Positions 30,201 through 39,200 of a DNA stretch of 64,000 bases are shown piece by piece (the stretch's first letter is position 1; each line of letters begins with the position of its first letter). Source of the stretch: Escherichia coli. GTDB lineage: Bacteria > Pseudomonadota > Gammaproteobacteria > Enterobacterales > Enterobacteriaceae. The stretch lies in NCBI RefSeq assembly GCF_044324875.1, contig NZ_CP172185.1, one strand, 5' to 3'. The position numbers were made by a program.

Positions 30201-33200
30201 TCATTAACATAGGAACAAAAATTGGTGCTGTTACTGCCCATTGAGCAGATGCGGACCCAATCATTAAATTAATGACAGCACAAATCAATATAAATCCAAT
30301 AAATATTACGGAATCTGGCAAATCAAGACTATTCAGAAAACTCCCGCCTTTAACCGCAATAACCTGACCAATATTTGTCCAGCTAAACAAAGCTACAAAC
30401 TGAGAGGCAAAAAATATAATGACCAGATAAAGTCCTAATGTACTCATTGAATGAGTCATGGCATCAACAATATCTTTGCTATTTTTTATTGTTCCCGCTG
30501 TATATCCATATACTACACCAGCTAATGAAAAGAATATGAAAATGAAAGCCACTATTGATTTAAGAAATGGAGAATTGCTGATTAATCCTGTTTGTTGATT
30601 ACGTAAGATTCCATCTTCAGGAATAACCAGAATGGCAACAATAACAGATAGTAGAAGTACAGATAAAAAGGACAGCATTAACGCTTTTTTCTCAACTGCT
30701 GTAACATCAGATGAATTACGAATTGACTGTTCATCCTGATTGAACCCTCCACCCTTGTATTTCCCTAACTGTGGTTCAACTATTTTTTCTGTTATCAGGT
30801 ACCCCATGAGTGTTATAAAAAATGTACTGACAAACATAAAATACCAGTTGGATTCAGCCCCTACAATATAATCAGATGATACAATTTGCGCTGCTTGCTG
30901 GGTGATTCCTGACAAGAGCGGATCGATTGTACCTAATACTAAATTTGCTGAATAGCCACCCGAGACTCCCGCAAAAGCAGCAGCAAGCCCGGCCAAGGGA
31001 TGTCTTCCCAGAGAATGAAAAAGTATTGCCGAAAGTGGTATTAAAACGACATAGCCAAGTTCTGAAGCCATGTTGGACATGATACCGGCAAAGACAACAG
31101 CTATAGTTGTTACTTTTGCAGGGGCTTTTGTCACAATAAGACGAAGGGTTGCTGAAATTAACCCGGACCGTTCTGCAATACCAACACCAAGAAGAGAAAC
31201 CAGAACAGTGCCCAGTGGTGCAAATCCCGTAAAATTAGTAACCAGATTCGAAAGAATTTTACGAACTCCATCTGCATCCAGTAAACTTACAATATAAATA
31301 ATACCATCATCATTCCGGCCTTTAGCTCCAGGTGGTCTTGGGTCTGGGGCGCTAATATTAAAATATTGTCCAATCATCGAAACTACAATTAAGGAAATTG
31401 TTAATATTATGAACAGGATGACGGGATGAGGAAGTGCATTGCCAAGCCATTCTACTGTTCTCAGGAAACGTCTTTCTCTTTTTGTTATCATTATTCCTCC
31501 TTTTCGGATTTTTTAAGTATCGATAAGTTTATCTCTCAGCATACATGTTGAACAAAATATCTTAAACAATAAAATATATTGTTTCTCCCTTTTCATGCAT
31601 CTAATTATATTTTTGAAGTAATCTGTGCTGATTGCATTAAAATAAACAATATGGAAAGGTTATTTCATAATACCTATAATAAATATTTTTGTTCGGTTTT
31701 TGGTATATAAATAATTGACATGCAGCATATATAATAAAATTATGAAAAATTAATTAATATATCTTTTACAATGTATCATTATTTTTTCAACGTTCTCTTT
31801 GGTATTTTGTGATTAACATCACACGAATAAAGGAGTTTGTGAAAAATTAACATGAATAAATCCTGTACCATCGTTGGACTCTCCCTCCAAAAGTTGGACA
31901 TCCAACTGATTAAGGTTAGTTTTTATGGCAAAGCCAAAATATTTTCTCTAAACCGAATAAGCTGTAGTTAATCATTATATTGCCGGACACGATGGTACAC
32001 GTCGTACCGCTGAACGTTTTGGTGTTGAAGAAACATCAGAGCGATGCTGGGTCAAGGGCTGGCAACTCCACGGTATTGATGGTATTACATGGCAAAATGA
32101 CCGCGGCTCTCCTGAGTTTCGACTGACAGTTGTCCTGAAGGTTTGAGTGAAGAACTTACCATGCGCTAGGCCACTACACAGTTTAATATATCAAATGAAA
32201 CCATTATCTGGCACTGGGTGAAGGTTTACAAAGATACTGGTGAAGAAGGACTTATGAACATAAACCAGGCCGGAGCAAGGACATGACAAAACTGTCACGA
32301 ACGGCGCAAAAGTGGCTCTTCCTTGGATGTATCTCTATATTTTCATACATCTGTTATCACTTAACCTGTTACTGTCCTTCAAACGCAGGAGATTCAGGGG
32401 GCCAGTCTAACCGCTAAGAACATGTTCCCGAAAATTGAGATAAACACGTTATGACAGCAACGTAAAATAAAACAGCGTTTTTTAGTCATAATGAACATGT
32501 AGAGTCCGTTTGTTCATACTCTGTGATTATCTCCATACGTTCATCTCTGGCGCTGCCAGATAGCGTTTTCGTTCTTACAGTCAATGCGCACCCGATACTG
32601 AATATCGGCTTTCTTCCCCCGGGCGGTGAGATGCACTGTGACTAAATTATCACCTTTACTTACCAGCTCACGAAGATTCACCCAGACAACAGGATGCTGC
32701 TGACTGAAGATCACCTAGTCATCTTTCCAGTGAAGCACCTGTTTCTGGAGATAGTCCCGTTTGACGCTGGCTGCAACAGCCGATGATTCCTGCCCTTCAC
32801 ATCGTGGAAAACTGACGGTTCTGTTTTTATCAGTAGCCAGTGATGATACACAAATACCGAAGGTGAGCAGAATTGAAGAGAGTGTTTTGTTTATTTACAG
32901 AACCCCATCATGGATAGCTCATTGTATTATTACTTTACATTTTAACAACATAAAATATCACTTTCAGAAGCAACAATCACATAACTTCTTATCCATTATT
33001 AATCACCTTATACAACGGGAGCATCGCCGCGCCGCATGACGCACTCTGTGCTCCCATCGAAGAGGCAGCTAACTTCACTCTGGGGCGGTTGGGATCGAGG
33101 CAGGCTTCCATCAGTTGATTCAGTTCCTGCACCAGACGACTGATAATCGGTTTCGGCATCGCGCCACCGAGTACGATGATTTGCGGGTCTACCCACTGCA

Positions 33201-36200: not shown

Positions 36201-39200
36201 GCCATCCATTTTCTGGAGCCGGTATCATGAAAAACTGGCGCAATGATGCGGTCGCCTGGCTGCTGATGCTCAGCGGGCTGGGCACGATCCTACTACTGAT
36301 GGGATCGACGTTTTATGTGGTGATCGTCCAGAGCCTGGGCTGGTTCAACATCGAAGGCGACAGCAATTTCTCGCTGGAATACTGGCGCAATATGTTGCAG
36401 GACGAAGTGTTGCAAAGCGCCCTGTTCTACTCAGTGAAAGTGTCACTGCTGGGGTCGTTCGGCTCGGTGATTTTCGCCTATCCGCTGGCGCTGTGGCTGC
36501 GTAAACCGATGGCCTATAAAGAGGGCATTATCGCGGTGCTGCGTGCGCCGATGTTTATCCCCGGTCTGGTGGCGGCGTTTCTGTTCGTCAATATCGTCGC
36601 TTATCACGGCATTATCAACGAACTGCTGCTGGCGCTGGGGATTATCAGCGAGCCGCTGCGGATGCAGAACGATGACTTCGGCTGGGGCGTGGTTATCCTG
36701 CAAATCTGGAAAAACCTGCCCTTCGCCCTGATCCTCGTCGGCGGCGCAGTCAACGCCATCCGTAACGACGTGCTGGACGCCGCCAGCAATCTCGGTGCCA
36801 GCCGCTGGCGCAGTTTTACCGGCGTGGTGGTGCCGCTGACGCTGCCCGCCGTGCAGGTGACGCTGATTCTGGTATTTATCGGCGCGCTGGGCGACTTCGC
36901 CTTCTTCTCGGTGGCCGGGCCACGCAACACCTACTCGCTGGCGCGGCTGATGCAGGCCACCGCCATGGAGTACGGCGAGTGGAATAACGCGGCGGTGATT
37001 GCGGTGATCATTATGGTCACGGCGGCCATCTGCACGTTGCTGATTGCCACACTGATTACCCCGTTCGCCACCCGCAAAGGAGAGGTCAAATGAGCCACAC
37101 TGATTACCCCGTTCGCCACCCGCAAAGGAGAGGTCAAATGAGCCACACTGCCAACGGTTGCCGGGTGGTGACGATTTCGCTGATCTTCTTCGTGGTCGCT
37201 AATCTGATCTGGCTGGGCATGCCGTTCGGCATGGCGATCCTCTGGTCGCTGGTTGACCCGGCCCATCCGTGGAGCTACCCGGATATCTTCCCGCCCGTGC
37301 TGTCGTTCAGCCGCTGGCTGCTGGTATGGGAAAAGACTTCGCTTTCCGAGGCGCTGTTCAACAGCTACACCATTGCGCCTGCGGTAGCGGTCGCCAGCCT
37401 GCTGCTGTCGCTACCCACCGCGTATGCCTTCGGGCGCATGACCTTTCGCGGTAAGGCGGTGGCGGAGATGCTGACGCTGATCCCGCTGGTGATGCCGGGG
37501 ATGCTGATCGGGATTTTTTTCAGCGCCATGCTGATCAACCTCAATATCGACAACGCGTTTATCAGCATTGTTATCGGCCATACGGTACTGACGCTGCCCT
37601 ATTCGATCCGCATTATGTCTGCGGGGTTTAAGTCGGTGCCGCAGGATCTGATCGACGCCAGCCGCGACCTGGGCTCCGGCGCGTGGGACACCTTCTGCAA
37701 TGCCTATCTGCCGCTGCTGAAACCGAGCTTCCTGGCGGCGCTGATTTTTTGTCTGGTGCGAAGCCTGGAAGAGTTCAGCATCTCATACGTGCTGGGCGCG
37801 CCGGACTTTATCACCGTTCCGACCATTCTTTACTCTTTCCTTGGCTACTCCTTCGTCCGCCCGGATGCGGCGGTGGTGTCGATGATTCTGGTGATCCCCA
37901 ATGTCATCCTGATGGTCATCATTGAGAAGTTGCTGAAGGGGAACTATCTGTCGCAATCCACGGGAAAAGCCTGACCTTTTACAGGAGATAATGTGATGAA
38001 AAAAACAGTGATGATTCTGGCGGGCGGCCTGCTGTGCAGCTCGCTGGCAACGGCGGCGGATAGCCCCGACCTGATTGCCCAAGCGAAAAAAGAGGGCAGC
38101 GTGACCTTTAACGTCTGGTACTTACAGCCGCAGTGGCGCAGCTTTGTGAAGGATTTTGAGCAGCAGTACGGTGTTAAGGTGCGCATCCCGGAAGGGAATA
38201 TCGACGGAAACGTGAACAAGTTGCTGGCAGAAGCGGGGAAAAAAAAAGGTAAAATAGATGTTATCGCCTTGTCTGTTGCGCAACTGCCAGTGGCAATGGG
38301 AGCGAAAGCGCTGGCGAAGGTGGACGATTTGCCGGGCTATGGCGACGCCATTCACCAGATTCAGAACGTTGACACCCAGGGTTATGCCGTGGCGTTCTGG
38401 GGCAACCAGACCGGATTTGCTTACGACCCGCAGCAGATGGGTGACCGGGCGCTGCCACAAACGCTGGAGCAGTTGCAGAGCTTTATCGACGCCAACCCGA
38501 AAAAGTTCGGCTATAACGACCCGAACAACGGCGGCGCTGGGGAAGCCTTTATCCAGCGCATCGTCACTACTCAGGGCGACACGTTTAACAGCGAAGCGGA
38601 GAGCGTTGACCCGGCAGTGGTGAAAAACTGGCAGAAAGGCTGGCAGTGGTTTGCCGCTAATAAGGACAAAATTACCCGCACGGCCTCCGGTGCTGATAGT
38701 CTGACACGCCTGAATGACGGCGAGCTGATGCTGACACCATCCTGGGAAGATCATCTTGTCGGACTACAAAAAACCGGGGCTATCAATTCGCGGCTGAAAT
38801 TTTACGTACCGGAGTTTGGCATGCCTGGCGGCGGTAACATCGCTGCCATTGCCGCCAACAGCCCACATCCGGCGGCATCACGCTTATTCCTCAACTGGCT
38901 GATTCAGCCTGAAACGCAACATGCACTGAGTAAAGTCTTCGGCTCCACGCCGATGAACAAACAGCTCCGTCCGGATCTGAATGAGATCCCGGAGCCCACG
39001 GTGGAGTTTTATGGCAAAGCGTACAGTACACAGCTCAAAAAAGATTTCGTTCGTGAGGTCATGATGCAGTAAGCTTCATTTCGCGCACAGCCATCCCCCT
39101 GAAATCTGGCTGACTGTTATTTCGCAACAGTTATTGAGTAAATCTTTAACCTGTTAACAGAGGGTTTATGAAACGTAAACTTATTGCCTTTGTGATTCTG

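Follow-up and report, generated by a model that had tools for sequence, protein, structure and literature searches.

Bacteria can feed on dedicated sugar phosphodiesters, as is known from the agrocinopine and, since 2025, the xanthosan systems of plant pathogens. The acc operon, coding for AccR, AccABCDE, AccF and AccG, serves agrocinopines A and B and agrocin 84; AccF cleaves agrocinopine A to sucrose and arabinose-2-phosphate, the repressor AccR responds to L-arabinose-2-phosphate as its effector, and the corresponding phosphatase is AccG (PMC4526662). In the xanthosan system, AvrBs2 is a GDPD-derived synthetase that makes xanthosan, a cyclic di-galactose-phosphate, which is imported by XanT and hydrolysed to galactose-1-phosphate by the 2H enzyme XanP, while XanR is a ROK regulator (2025; PMC12807533). 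The same paper reports AvrBs2-like proteins in Salmonella, Providencia and other animal pathogens, and describes no uptake or utilisation genes for them. Here we describe a six-gene module at positions 32989–39072 of a 64,000-nucleotide stretch of Escherichia coli DNA (contig NZ_CP172185.1, assembly GCF_044324875.1), the whole of which is called the window below. The module joins a GDPD-family phosphodiesterase and a ROK regulator to a divergently encoded ATP-binding cassette (ABC) importer, and is a putative enterobacterial counterpart of the agrocinopine and xanthosan feeding systems, most likely serving to import and split a sugar phosphodiester as a nutrient. In our view it is probably a mobile catabolic system by which a small sugar or cyclitol phosphodiester is imported and then cleaved by an AccF-like GDPD, under the control of ROK and CRP; the class of substrate, the direction of regulation and the inducer are those that we infer.

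Module layout and linked phosphodiesterases

Two operons diverge from a 215-bp AT-rich spacer, GDPD-ROK on the minus strand and the ABC genes on the plus strand, with the following features (window coordinates, protein lengths in amino acids, aa).

32989..34101, minus strand: ROK-family transcriptional regulator gene (370 aa; Pfam ROK and an N-terminal winged helix-turn-helix, HTH)
34117..34947, minus strand: GDPD-family phosphodiesterase gene (276 aa; first gene of the GDPD-ROK operon; Pfam GDPD)
34948..35162, no strand: divergent AT-rich control region, with candidate ROK operators and a CRP-like site
35163..36230, plus strand: ABC ATP-binding subunit gene (355 aa; PotA/UgpC/MalK type; Pfam ABC_tran)
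36227..37093, plus strand: ABC permease 1 gene (288 aa; distantly PotB-like; Pfam BPD_transp_1)
37090..37974, plus strand: ABC permease 2 gene (294 aa from the first start codon; distantly PotC-like)
37993..39072, plus strand: periplasmic substrate-binding protein gene (359 aa including the signal peptide; Pfam SBP_bac_8)

An earlier note on this DNA had described a cytoplasmic UgpQ-like GDPD and a ROK regulator facing an ATPase, two permeases and a binding protein on the plus strand, in GC-rich DNA unlike its flanks, and had not recognised a named operon of E. coli K-12 in them. The listing of open reading frames places all six genes, intact, at 32989–39072, and Pfam supports all four transport proteins (ABC_tran, E 3.8e-36; BPD_transp_1, E 5.4e-14 for permease 1 and 2.9e-13 for permease 2; SBP_bac_8, E 2e-31) as well as the ROK (E 3.7e-24, plus HTH_24) and GDPD (E 7.5e-27) assignments. 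The GC content is 0.55–0.61 over 33.0–39.0 kb against 0.34–0.45 in the flanks. The GDPD begins MAFNFHRAAEG and has no signal peptide, in agreement with a cytoplasmic location, but it is better called AccF-like than UgpQ-like (see later). Nor is the locus Ugp, Pot, Phn or Fbp, every curated family score being below its cut-off.

The GDPD and ROK genes are 15 bp apart, the ATPase and two permease genes show successive 4-bp overlaps and are translationally coupled, and the binding-protein gene starts 18 bp past permease 2. For permease 2, the Prokaryotic Genome Annotation Pipeline (PGAP) uses a later start codon in E. coli strain 135, giving 278 aa rather than 294 aa. The Pfam domains, the overlapping genes and an exported binding protein, whose signal peptide ends in SSLATA before AD, make this a type I binding-protein-dependent ABC importer.

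Members of the binding-protein family range across Salmonella, Klebsiella, Buttiauxella, Serratia, Yersinia, Proteus, Providencia and Pantoea, and further to Vibrionaceae, Pasteurellaceae, Rhizobiaceae, Rhodobacterales and beyond. The open reading frames of 75 species-level loci were clustered and recurrent neighbours then identified; linkage was counted over those 54 species-level loci whose flanks extend for 3 kb or more on each side, a phosphodiesterase being scored if it lay within 3.5 kb. One or more phosphodiesterase genes were found near the transporter in 41 of the 54 (20 with a GDPD only, nine with a 2H enzyme only, five with both, three with GDPD-DUF4996, two with a PHP protein, and two with a GDPD plus an AvrBs2-like gene), and a ROK gene in 40/54. 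The partner phosphodiesterases have different folds, comprising the 276-aa GDPD type of E. coli, GDPD-DUF4996, DUF1868 2H and PHP-domain proteins. In alphaproteobacteria and one actinobacterium, a 2H or GDPD-DUF4996 gene occupies the same slot after the binding-protein gene and is followed by a gene for an IMPase-family phosphatase, and the conserved synteny with phosphodiesterases and ROK extends from gammaproteobacteria as far as actinobacteria. The swapping of unrelated phosphodiesterase folds in one operon slot is the strongest evidence for a phosphodiester as the imported compound. Identity to AccG reaches 35% among the IMPases encoded next to the transporter. The 2H enzymes belong to DUF1868 and share 48% (Pantoea) or 30% (Vibrio, Roseibium) identity with XanP of Xanthomonas oryzae, the gene for which sits in the cluster avrBs2 - ROK - TonB receptor - 2H.

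Transporters of the Fe3+-binding-protein class can carry phosphorylated sugars, as exemplified by the hexose-phosphate importer AfuABC. The module could import a phosphomonoester or an unphosphorylated sugar, in the manner of AfuABC and VCA0625 with hexose phosphates, while the GDPD acts on an unrelated intracellular substrate. Its binding protein has its broad structural class in common with VCA0625, which binds glucose-6-phosphate (structure 8x1a), although the identity between them is only 14–15%. IMPase genes beside the transporter in several loci would also fit a monoester, as would nine loci, all from Pasteurellaceae, in which the transporter stands alone, with neither phosphodiesterase nor ROK. 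The 41 loci that do have a phosphodiesterase argue the other way, and the interchange of unrelated folds in one operon position is hard to explain unless a diester is imported; we consider this alternative improbable.

Two Agrobacterium plasmids carry relatives of the transporter, pTiAg57 (locus L082, 4787-13557) and a plasmid of A. vitis F2/5 (L083, 4690-18262). On both, a ROK gene is divergent from genes in the order ATPase, permease, permease, binding protein, GDPD, IMPase and Na/Pi cotransporter family gene, and traR adjoins the locus. The A. vitis plasmid continues with genes for aldose 1-epimerase, sucrose phosphorylase and alpha-galactosidase, and on pTiAg57 the locus has T-DNA genes as further neighbours, among them an ACS/AvrBs2-like fragment (L082, 2269-2913). 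The E. coli ATPase is 51%, the binding protein 38% and the ROK regulator 27% identical to the corresponding proteins of the pTiAg57 opine-type locus. The plasmid loci look like an undescribed alternative to acc, in which the transporter and regulator would have been replaced by non-orthologous ones; no paper on this was found in the literature searched. The uptake of a phosphodiester or sugar phosphate under ROK control, as suggested in the earlier note, is strengthened by the cross-phylum linkage of phosphodiesterase, IMPase and ROK genes, by these opine-type plasmid loci, and by homology to AccF, XanR and XanP.

In some relatives the module is extended by AvrBs2-like proteins. Proteus myxofaciens and Providencia stuartii each encode one such protein beside it, a GDPD-domain protein of 640–650 aa with a Sec signal peptide. 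The Salmonella locus, with core proteins 84–93% identical to those of E. coli, carries two Sec-exported AvrBs2-like GDPD proteins, ROK and the 276-aa GDPD, the four ABC genes in divergent orientation, and a porin (the AvrBs2-like pair of L089 is at 10001-13618; the other coordinates for the secreted proteins and the porin are L089 20091-21215, L088 10001-14782, L012 9204-11153 and L056 883-2382). Across the three genera these secreted proteins are about 580–650 aa long. In the second Salmonella paralogue KNG replaces the catalytic HRG, and this protein may be inactive. The family of the large secreted GDPD proteins extends to Salmonella enterica, Erwinia, Corynebacterium and other actinobacteria; ricin-type lectin domains occur in part of its members. 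Among the comparators, the large secreted protein is the closest to AvrBs2 (67 bits, against 36–48 bits for ordinary GDPDs). The taxa match the list of AvrBs2-like proteins in PMC12807533, and on the strength of the taxa and of this best similarity to AvrBs2 the two sets of proteins may be the same.

No match to the Salmonella AvrBs2-like genes was found in 5,426 complete E. coli genomes or in the window, and a generator enzyme in E. coli was rejected on these grounds; the E. coli locus consists of the uptake and cleavage core only. Tentatively, the secreted AvrBs2-like enzymes of Salmonella, Proteus and Providencia, whose genes adjoin near-identical modules, might make a private sugar phosphodiester, for which host, dietary or microbial glycans or nucleotide sugars could be the source, and the porin and ABC system might import it, with core-only poultry E. 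coli as scavengers. Such a gut version of the opine and xanthosan strategy is conceivable, but we would not put it forward as the likely state of affairs.

Two further groups of loci deserve mention. In the Vibrio coralliilyticus / V. mediterranei group (L053, 3421-13295; L054, 2176-14047), the transporter and ROK share an operon with a CpsG-like phosphomannomutase, two glycosyltransferase family 4 (GT4) enzymes and a 533-aa protein with no family assignment. The GT4 enzymes are similar to mannosylglucosylglycerate synthase, at a score of 401 bits that falls short of the cut-off, and a DUF1868 2H enzyme is encoded nearby. This gene content suggests a glycosylated phosphodiester as the substrate there. 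In Yersinia pestis NCTC5923 (L011, 4293-6282), the ATPase gene of the module is split into pieces of 113 aa and 235 aa with intervening open reading frames, and the system is probably inactivated.

Family identity of the transporter and the GDPD

None of the six proteins reached the cut-off of an NCBIfam equivalog model, and the Pot, Phn, Thi and Fbp models all scored far below theirs. The best matches of the ATPase are PhnT2 (361 bits), UgpC (334 bits; cut-off 432) and PotA (329 bits), all under cut-off, while PotB gives 80 bits on permease 1 (cut-off 348) and PotC 82 bits on permease 2 (cut-off 326). For the binding protein, the best match is PRK11622 (61 bits; cut-off 203), and the PhnS models give 27–34 bits against cut-offs of 310–395. 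By these scores the module is not a PotABCD, PhnSTUV, ThiBPQ or Fbp importer, and a Ugp, Pot, Phn or Fbp identity was ruled out. It could still be argued that this is an ordinary importer of polyamines, 2-aminoethylphosphonate, thiamine or ferric iron, next to which the GDPD and ROK genes lie fortuitously: the gene order is that of potABCD, and in some database entries homologues go under the name 'putative spermidine/putrescine transport system substrate-binding protein'. Given the curated scores, and a phosphodiesterase and ROK synteny shared by groups as distant as gammaproteobacteria and actinobacteria, this is very improbable.

The binding protein has no relative of solved structure above 19% identity. 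Its AlphaFold model (mean predicted local distance difference test score, pLDDT, 87.8) has binders of iron, phosphonate, polyamine, maltodextrin and UgpB type as structural neighbours with nearly equal scores, so the fold indicates a class II binding protein and says nothing on the ligand. Its family is well conserved, with 58 alignment columns that do not vary among 23 homologues as distant as 44% identity, and the protein founds a distinct subfamily of the Fe3+/PotD/PhnS structural class. The earlier note had proposed a comparison with solved binding proteins of known ligand, the best of which proved to be at most 19% identical, and had named clear orthology to a characterised transporter for another class of substrate as evidence against its reading; such orthology was looked for and not found, with equivalog scores far below cut-off.

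The GDPD keeps the His-Arg pair, the second His and the metal-binding Glu/Asp/Glu of its superfamily. Residues H18, R19, E27, N28, E45, D47, H60, D61, E120 and K122 are invariant in an alignment with AccF and UgpQ, and the catalytic residues also line up with structure 2pz0. It aligns end to end with AccF of pTiC58 (31% identity over 256 aa, 115 bits), against 27% over 205 aa and 75 bits for UgpQ of K-12, and an insertion at about residues 237–253 is common to AccF and missing in UgpQ. The UgpQ equivalog model gives 107 bits (cut-off 264). The GDPD therefore appears closer to AccF than to UgpQ, but since AccF itself scores 104 bits against UgpQ, this affinity is only modest. An AvrBs2-type synthetase was rejected for the 276-aa protein, which gives 32 bits to AvrBs2 over 59 aa as against 115 bits to AccF.

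The main rival explanation is that the module is a second importer for classical glycerophosphodiesters (glycerophosphocholine, -ethanolamine, -glycerol or -inositol), parallel to Ugp, which would serve carbon use under CRP, with the GDPD releasing glycerol-3-phosphate. The enzyme is a GDPD family member with intact catalytic residues, the resemblance to Ugp extends to both the GDPD (27% to UgpQ) and the ATPase (37% to UgpC), and no gene specific to sugars is present in the E. coli locus itself. A glycerophosphoinositol variant would fit the IMPase partners and the IolG/IolE-like genes seen in two distant loci. However, the UgpQ and UgpC equivalog models score well short of their cut-offs, the binding protein gave no match to UgpB by BLAST, and the regulator is of the ROK sugar-sensing type. 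The module is thus neither a Ugp system nor the source of a UgpQ orthologue, as judged by equivalog scores, binding protein and the lack of a Pho box. In relatives the partners include a XanP-like enzyme, sucrose phosphorylase, alpha-galactosidase, phosphomannomutase and AvrBs2-like enzymes, a set that favours esters of glycosyl over those of glycerol. Moreover, E. coli already handles classical glycerophosphodiesters through GlpQ/GlpT and Ugp. As a substrate class these compounds are less likely than a sugar or cyclitol phosphodiester, and the rival explanation as a whole is possible but rather unlikely.

Regulation and genomic surroundings

The ROK regulator matches XanR of Xanthomonas over its full length (26% identity, E 3e-36). 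Regulators of the NagC/Mlc type combine an HTH and a ROK domain with a zinc-binding CxCGxxGC(L/W)E motif. The E. coli protein has the HTH and the ROK domain, but the motif CxCGxxGC is missing in it, in all 53 linked ROKs and in XanR. It also has ENNAN in place of the kinase catalytic ND motif, and the NagC and Mlc equivalogs give about 70–74 bits against cut-offs of 530–650. Its sequence marks it as a member of a divergent subfamily, a XanR-like zinc-less variant. The full-length match, the loss of the zinc motif and the same layout identify a XanR-type ROK divergent from an uptake operon.

In the control region the sequence TAAATTTAA occurs three times, at 34991-35000 (as a perfect 10-bp palindrome), 35101-35109 and 35121-35129. 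All matches to TAAATTTAA in the 64-kb window lie within the control region, with 0.7 expected by chance, and the site positions are kept in Salmonella, Buttiauxella, Escherichia sp., Yersinia and others. These repeats are the obvious candidates for ROK operators. At 35085-35100 lies a CRP-like site (AAGGATCTGTGTCACA) with a right half that is perfect and is conserved in Enterobacterales about 69–70 bp upstream of the ATPase start, and four Pasteurellaceae loci have a perfect TGTGA-N6-TCACA at the equivalent position. No Pho box was found in the control region, where the best match has 5/18 mismatches, and regulation by Pho was rejected. The CRP-like site and its perfect Pasteurellaceae equivalents, together with the lack of a Pho box, suggest that the module is controlled by ROK and CRP as a carbon-catabolic operon rather than as a phosphate-starvation (Pho) operon.

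The full locus is rare in E. coli, with at least 80% of its 7-kb stretch present in 20 of the 5,426 complete genomes, and the best-matching genomes are mostly from poultry isolates. The 7-kb stretch is 100% identical to that of strain 135, from chicken faeces, where PGAP annotates the same six genes. Its surroundings form a mosaic island with ter genes, insertion sequence (IS) elements, an S6 autotransporter, an AbgT transporter and sodC. The module is a rare, mobile, horizontally acquired element inside this mosaic tellurite-resistance island.

The tellurite-resistance cluster occupies window positions ~7300-19700 and includes terC, terD, TerB- and TerD-family genes and terW, accompanied by the usual ATP-grasp, phosphoribosyltransferase, HAD, StiP and HpcH genes (annotation from the near-identical strain 135). 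In the low-GC DNA upstream of the module are genes for an S6-family autotransporter peptidase of the SPATE (serine protease autotransporters of Enterobacteriaceae) type (~25745-29620, minus strand) and an AbgT-family transporter (29932-31491, minus strand). Between the AbgT and ROK genes is a YebF-family pseudogene with an internal stop (~32540-32840), which sits on the low-GC/high-GC boundary of the module. The sodC gene (Cu/Zn superoxide dismutase family; 39168-39692, plus strand) begins 95 bp past the binding-protein gene and is followed by a strong bidirectional stem-loop at 39699-39723; it was rejected as a member of the module, being missing from all 80 related loci. At ~44900-52100 is a cluster for an ankyrin-repeat protein, DUF2877, FdrA, YlbE, a hypothetical protein and a carbamate kinase family protein, adjoined by a divergent LysR regulator gene (annotation again from strain 135). 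Four stretches of the window are not in strain 135 (21503-24141, 40310-41639, 53361-54670 and 55649-58287) and are insertions of IS size, one of which matches an IS3-family element; the window thus derives from another strain, though one related to strain 135. Window positions 1-9852 also differ from strain 135, with vWA, DUF7706 and IS genes in place of iolG/iolD; a link to inositol through adjacent iol genes was rejected, as these belong to strain 135 and not to the window.

Proposed pathway and comparison with known systems

In the pathway that we propose, the periplasmic binding protein would capture the diester, and the PotABC-like ATPase and two permeases would import it. The cytoplasmic AccF-like GDPD would then split it into an alcohol and a sugar phosphate that enter central metabolism. 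ROK would repress both divergent operons via the TAAATTTAA repeats until released by a cleavage product, either the sugar phosphate or the sugar, much as L-arabinose-2-phosphate releases AccR, and cAMP-CRP would contribute catabolite control.

Several observations weigh against a sugar or cyclitol phosphodiester system. Genes for an IMPase, a 2H enzyme, sugar catabolism, a porin or a generator enzyme are all missing from the E. coli locus, and the argument for a sugar rests on relatives that are 38–93% identical. The transporter is on its own in the nine Pasteurellaceae loci mentioned above. The GDPD also resembles UgpQ (75 bits), which leaves glycerophosphodiesters among the possible substrates, and the binding protein lacks an informative solved relative; the substrate class is drawn from genomic context. 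The same is true of the opine role of the Agrobacterium loci, which is deduced from gene context, and the CRP-like site of E. coli has three mismatches in its left half. In Xanthomonas, a xanR knockout had no virulence phenotype and the induction of xanT and xanP was independent of xanthosan (PMC12807533), so the inducer logic of Xan is not simply transferable to the E. coli module.

If a sugar or cyclitol phosphodiester is indeed imported, the module offers candidate utilisation genes for the animal-associated AvrBs2-like proteins, in the form of an importer, an AccF-like enzyme and a XanR-like regulator, which some Salmonella encode at a single locus together with AvrBs2-like enzymes and a porin. 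The question of whether animal-associated enterobacteria use private sugar phosphodiesters can now be addressed with six to nine defined genes. In E. coli, the module would be a rare, mobile, poultry-associated metabolic trait that could influence competition in the gut; should its substrate be a common glycerophosphodiester, the locus would merely be an accessory nutrient importer.

Literature searches for an enterobacterial GDPD, ROK and ABC module, including from the angles of DUF1868, xanthosan and sugar-phosphodiester ABC transporters, found no paper. Among described systems, Ugp (UgpBAEC with UgpQ) shares the combination of an ABC importer and a cytoplasmic GDPD, at 37% identity for the ATPase and 27% for the GDPD, but the binding protein of the module has no sequence relationship to UgpB, its genes are ordered differently, and there is ROK and possibly CRP control, without a Pho box, where Ugp is under PhoB. 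AfuABC and VCA0625 have a binding protein of the same broad fold class (8x1a is among the structural neighbours) and a PotA-like ATPase; unlike the module, these are monoester systems without a linked phosphodiesterase, and the identity is as low as 14–15%.

The likeness to Xan lies in a zinc-less ROK that is homologous to XanR and divergent from a transporter-phosphodiesterase operon, and in the XanP homologues (30–48% identity) and AvrBs2-like enzymes carried by relatives of the E. coli locus. The E. coli locus encodes a GDPD where Xan has the 2H enzyme XanP, and it has an inner-membrane ABC importer and no TonB-dependent receptor; XanP (2H/DUF1868), the XanT receptor and an AvrBs2 synthetase are all absent from the window. 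The AvrBs2-like proteins of Enterobacterales carry Sec signal peptides and are not type III effectors.

As in Acc, a sugar phosphodiester is proposed to enter the E. coli cell by a binding-protein-dependent ABC transporter and to be cleaved by a cytoplasmic GDPD. Both systems are repressor-controlled and mobile, AccF shares an insertion with the E. coli GDPD, and an AccG-like IMPase (35% to AccG) is encoded in loci related to that of E. coli. They differ in that the E. coli transporter is of the PotABCD/Fe3+ class and AccA of the oligopeptide class, the regulators are ROK and DeoR (AccR) proteins, the window has no IMPase or AccG, and the E. coli host is an animal-gut bacterium with no known source of opines. 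With an SBP_bac_8 binding protein, a ROK regulator and no IMPase in the window, the E. coli module is an analogue of Acc and not a member of it. An ABC importer with a cytoplasmic phosphodiesterase and a repressor, dedicated to a phosphodiester nutrient, is a known kind of system. The combination of this new binding-protein subfamily with an AccF-like GDPD and a zinc-less XanR-like ROK, joined in relatives by secreted AvrBs2-like enzymes and a porin, is uncharacterised according to the searchable literature.

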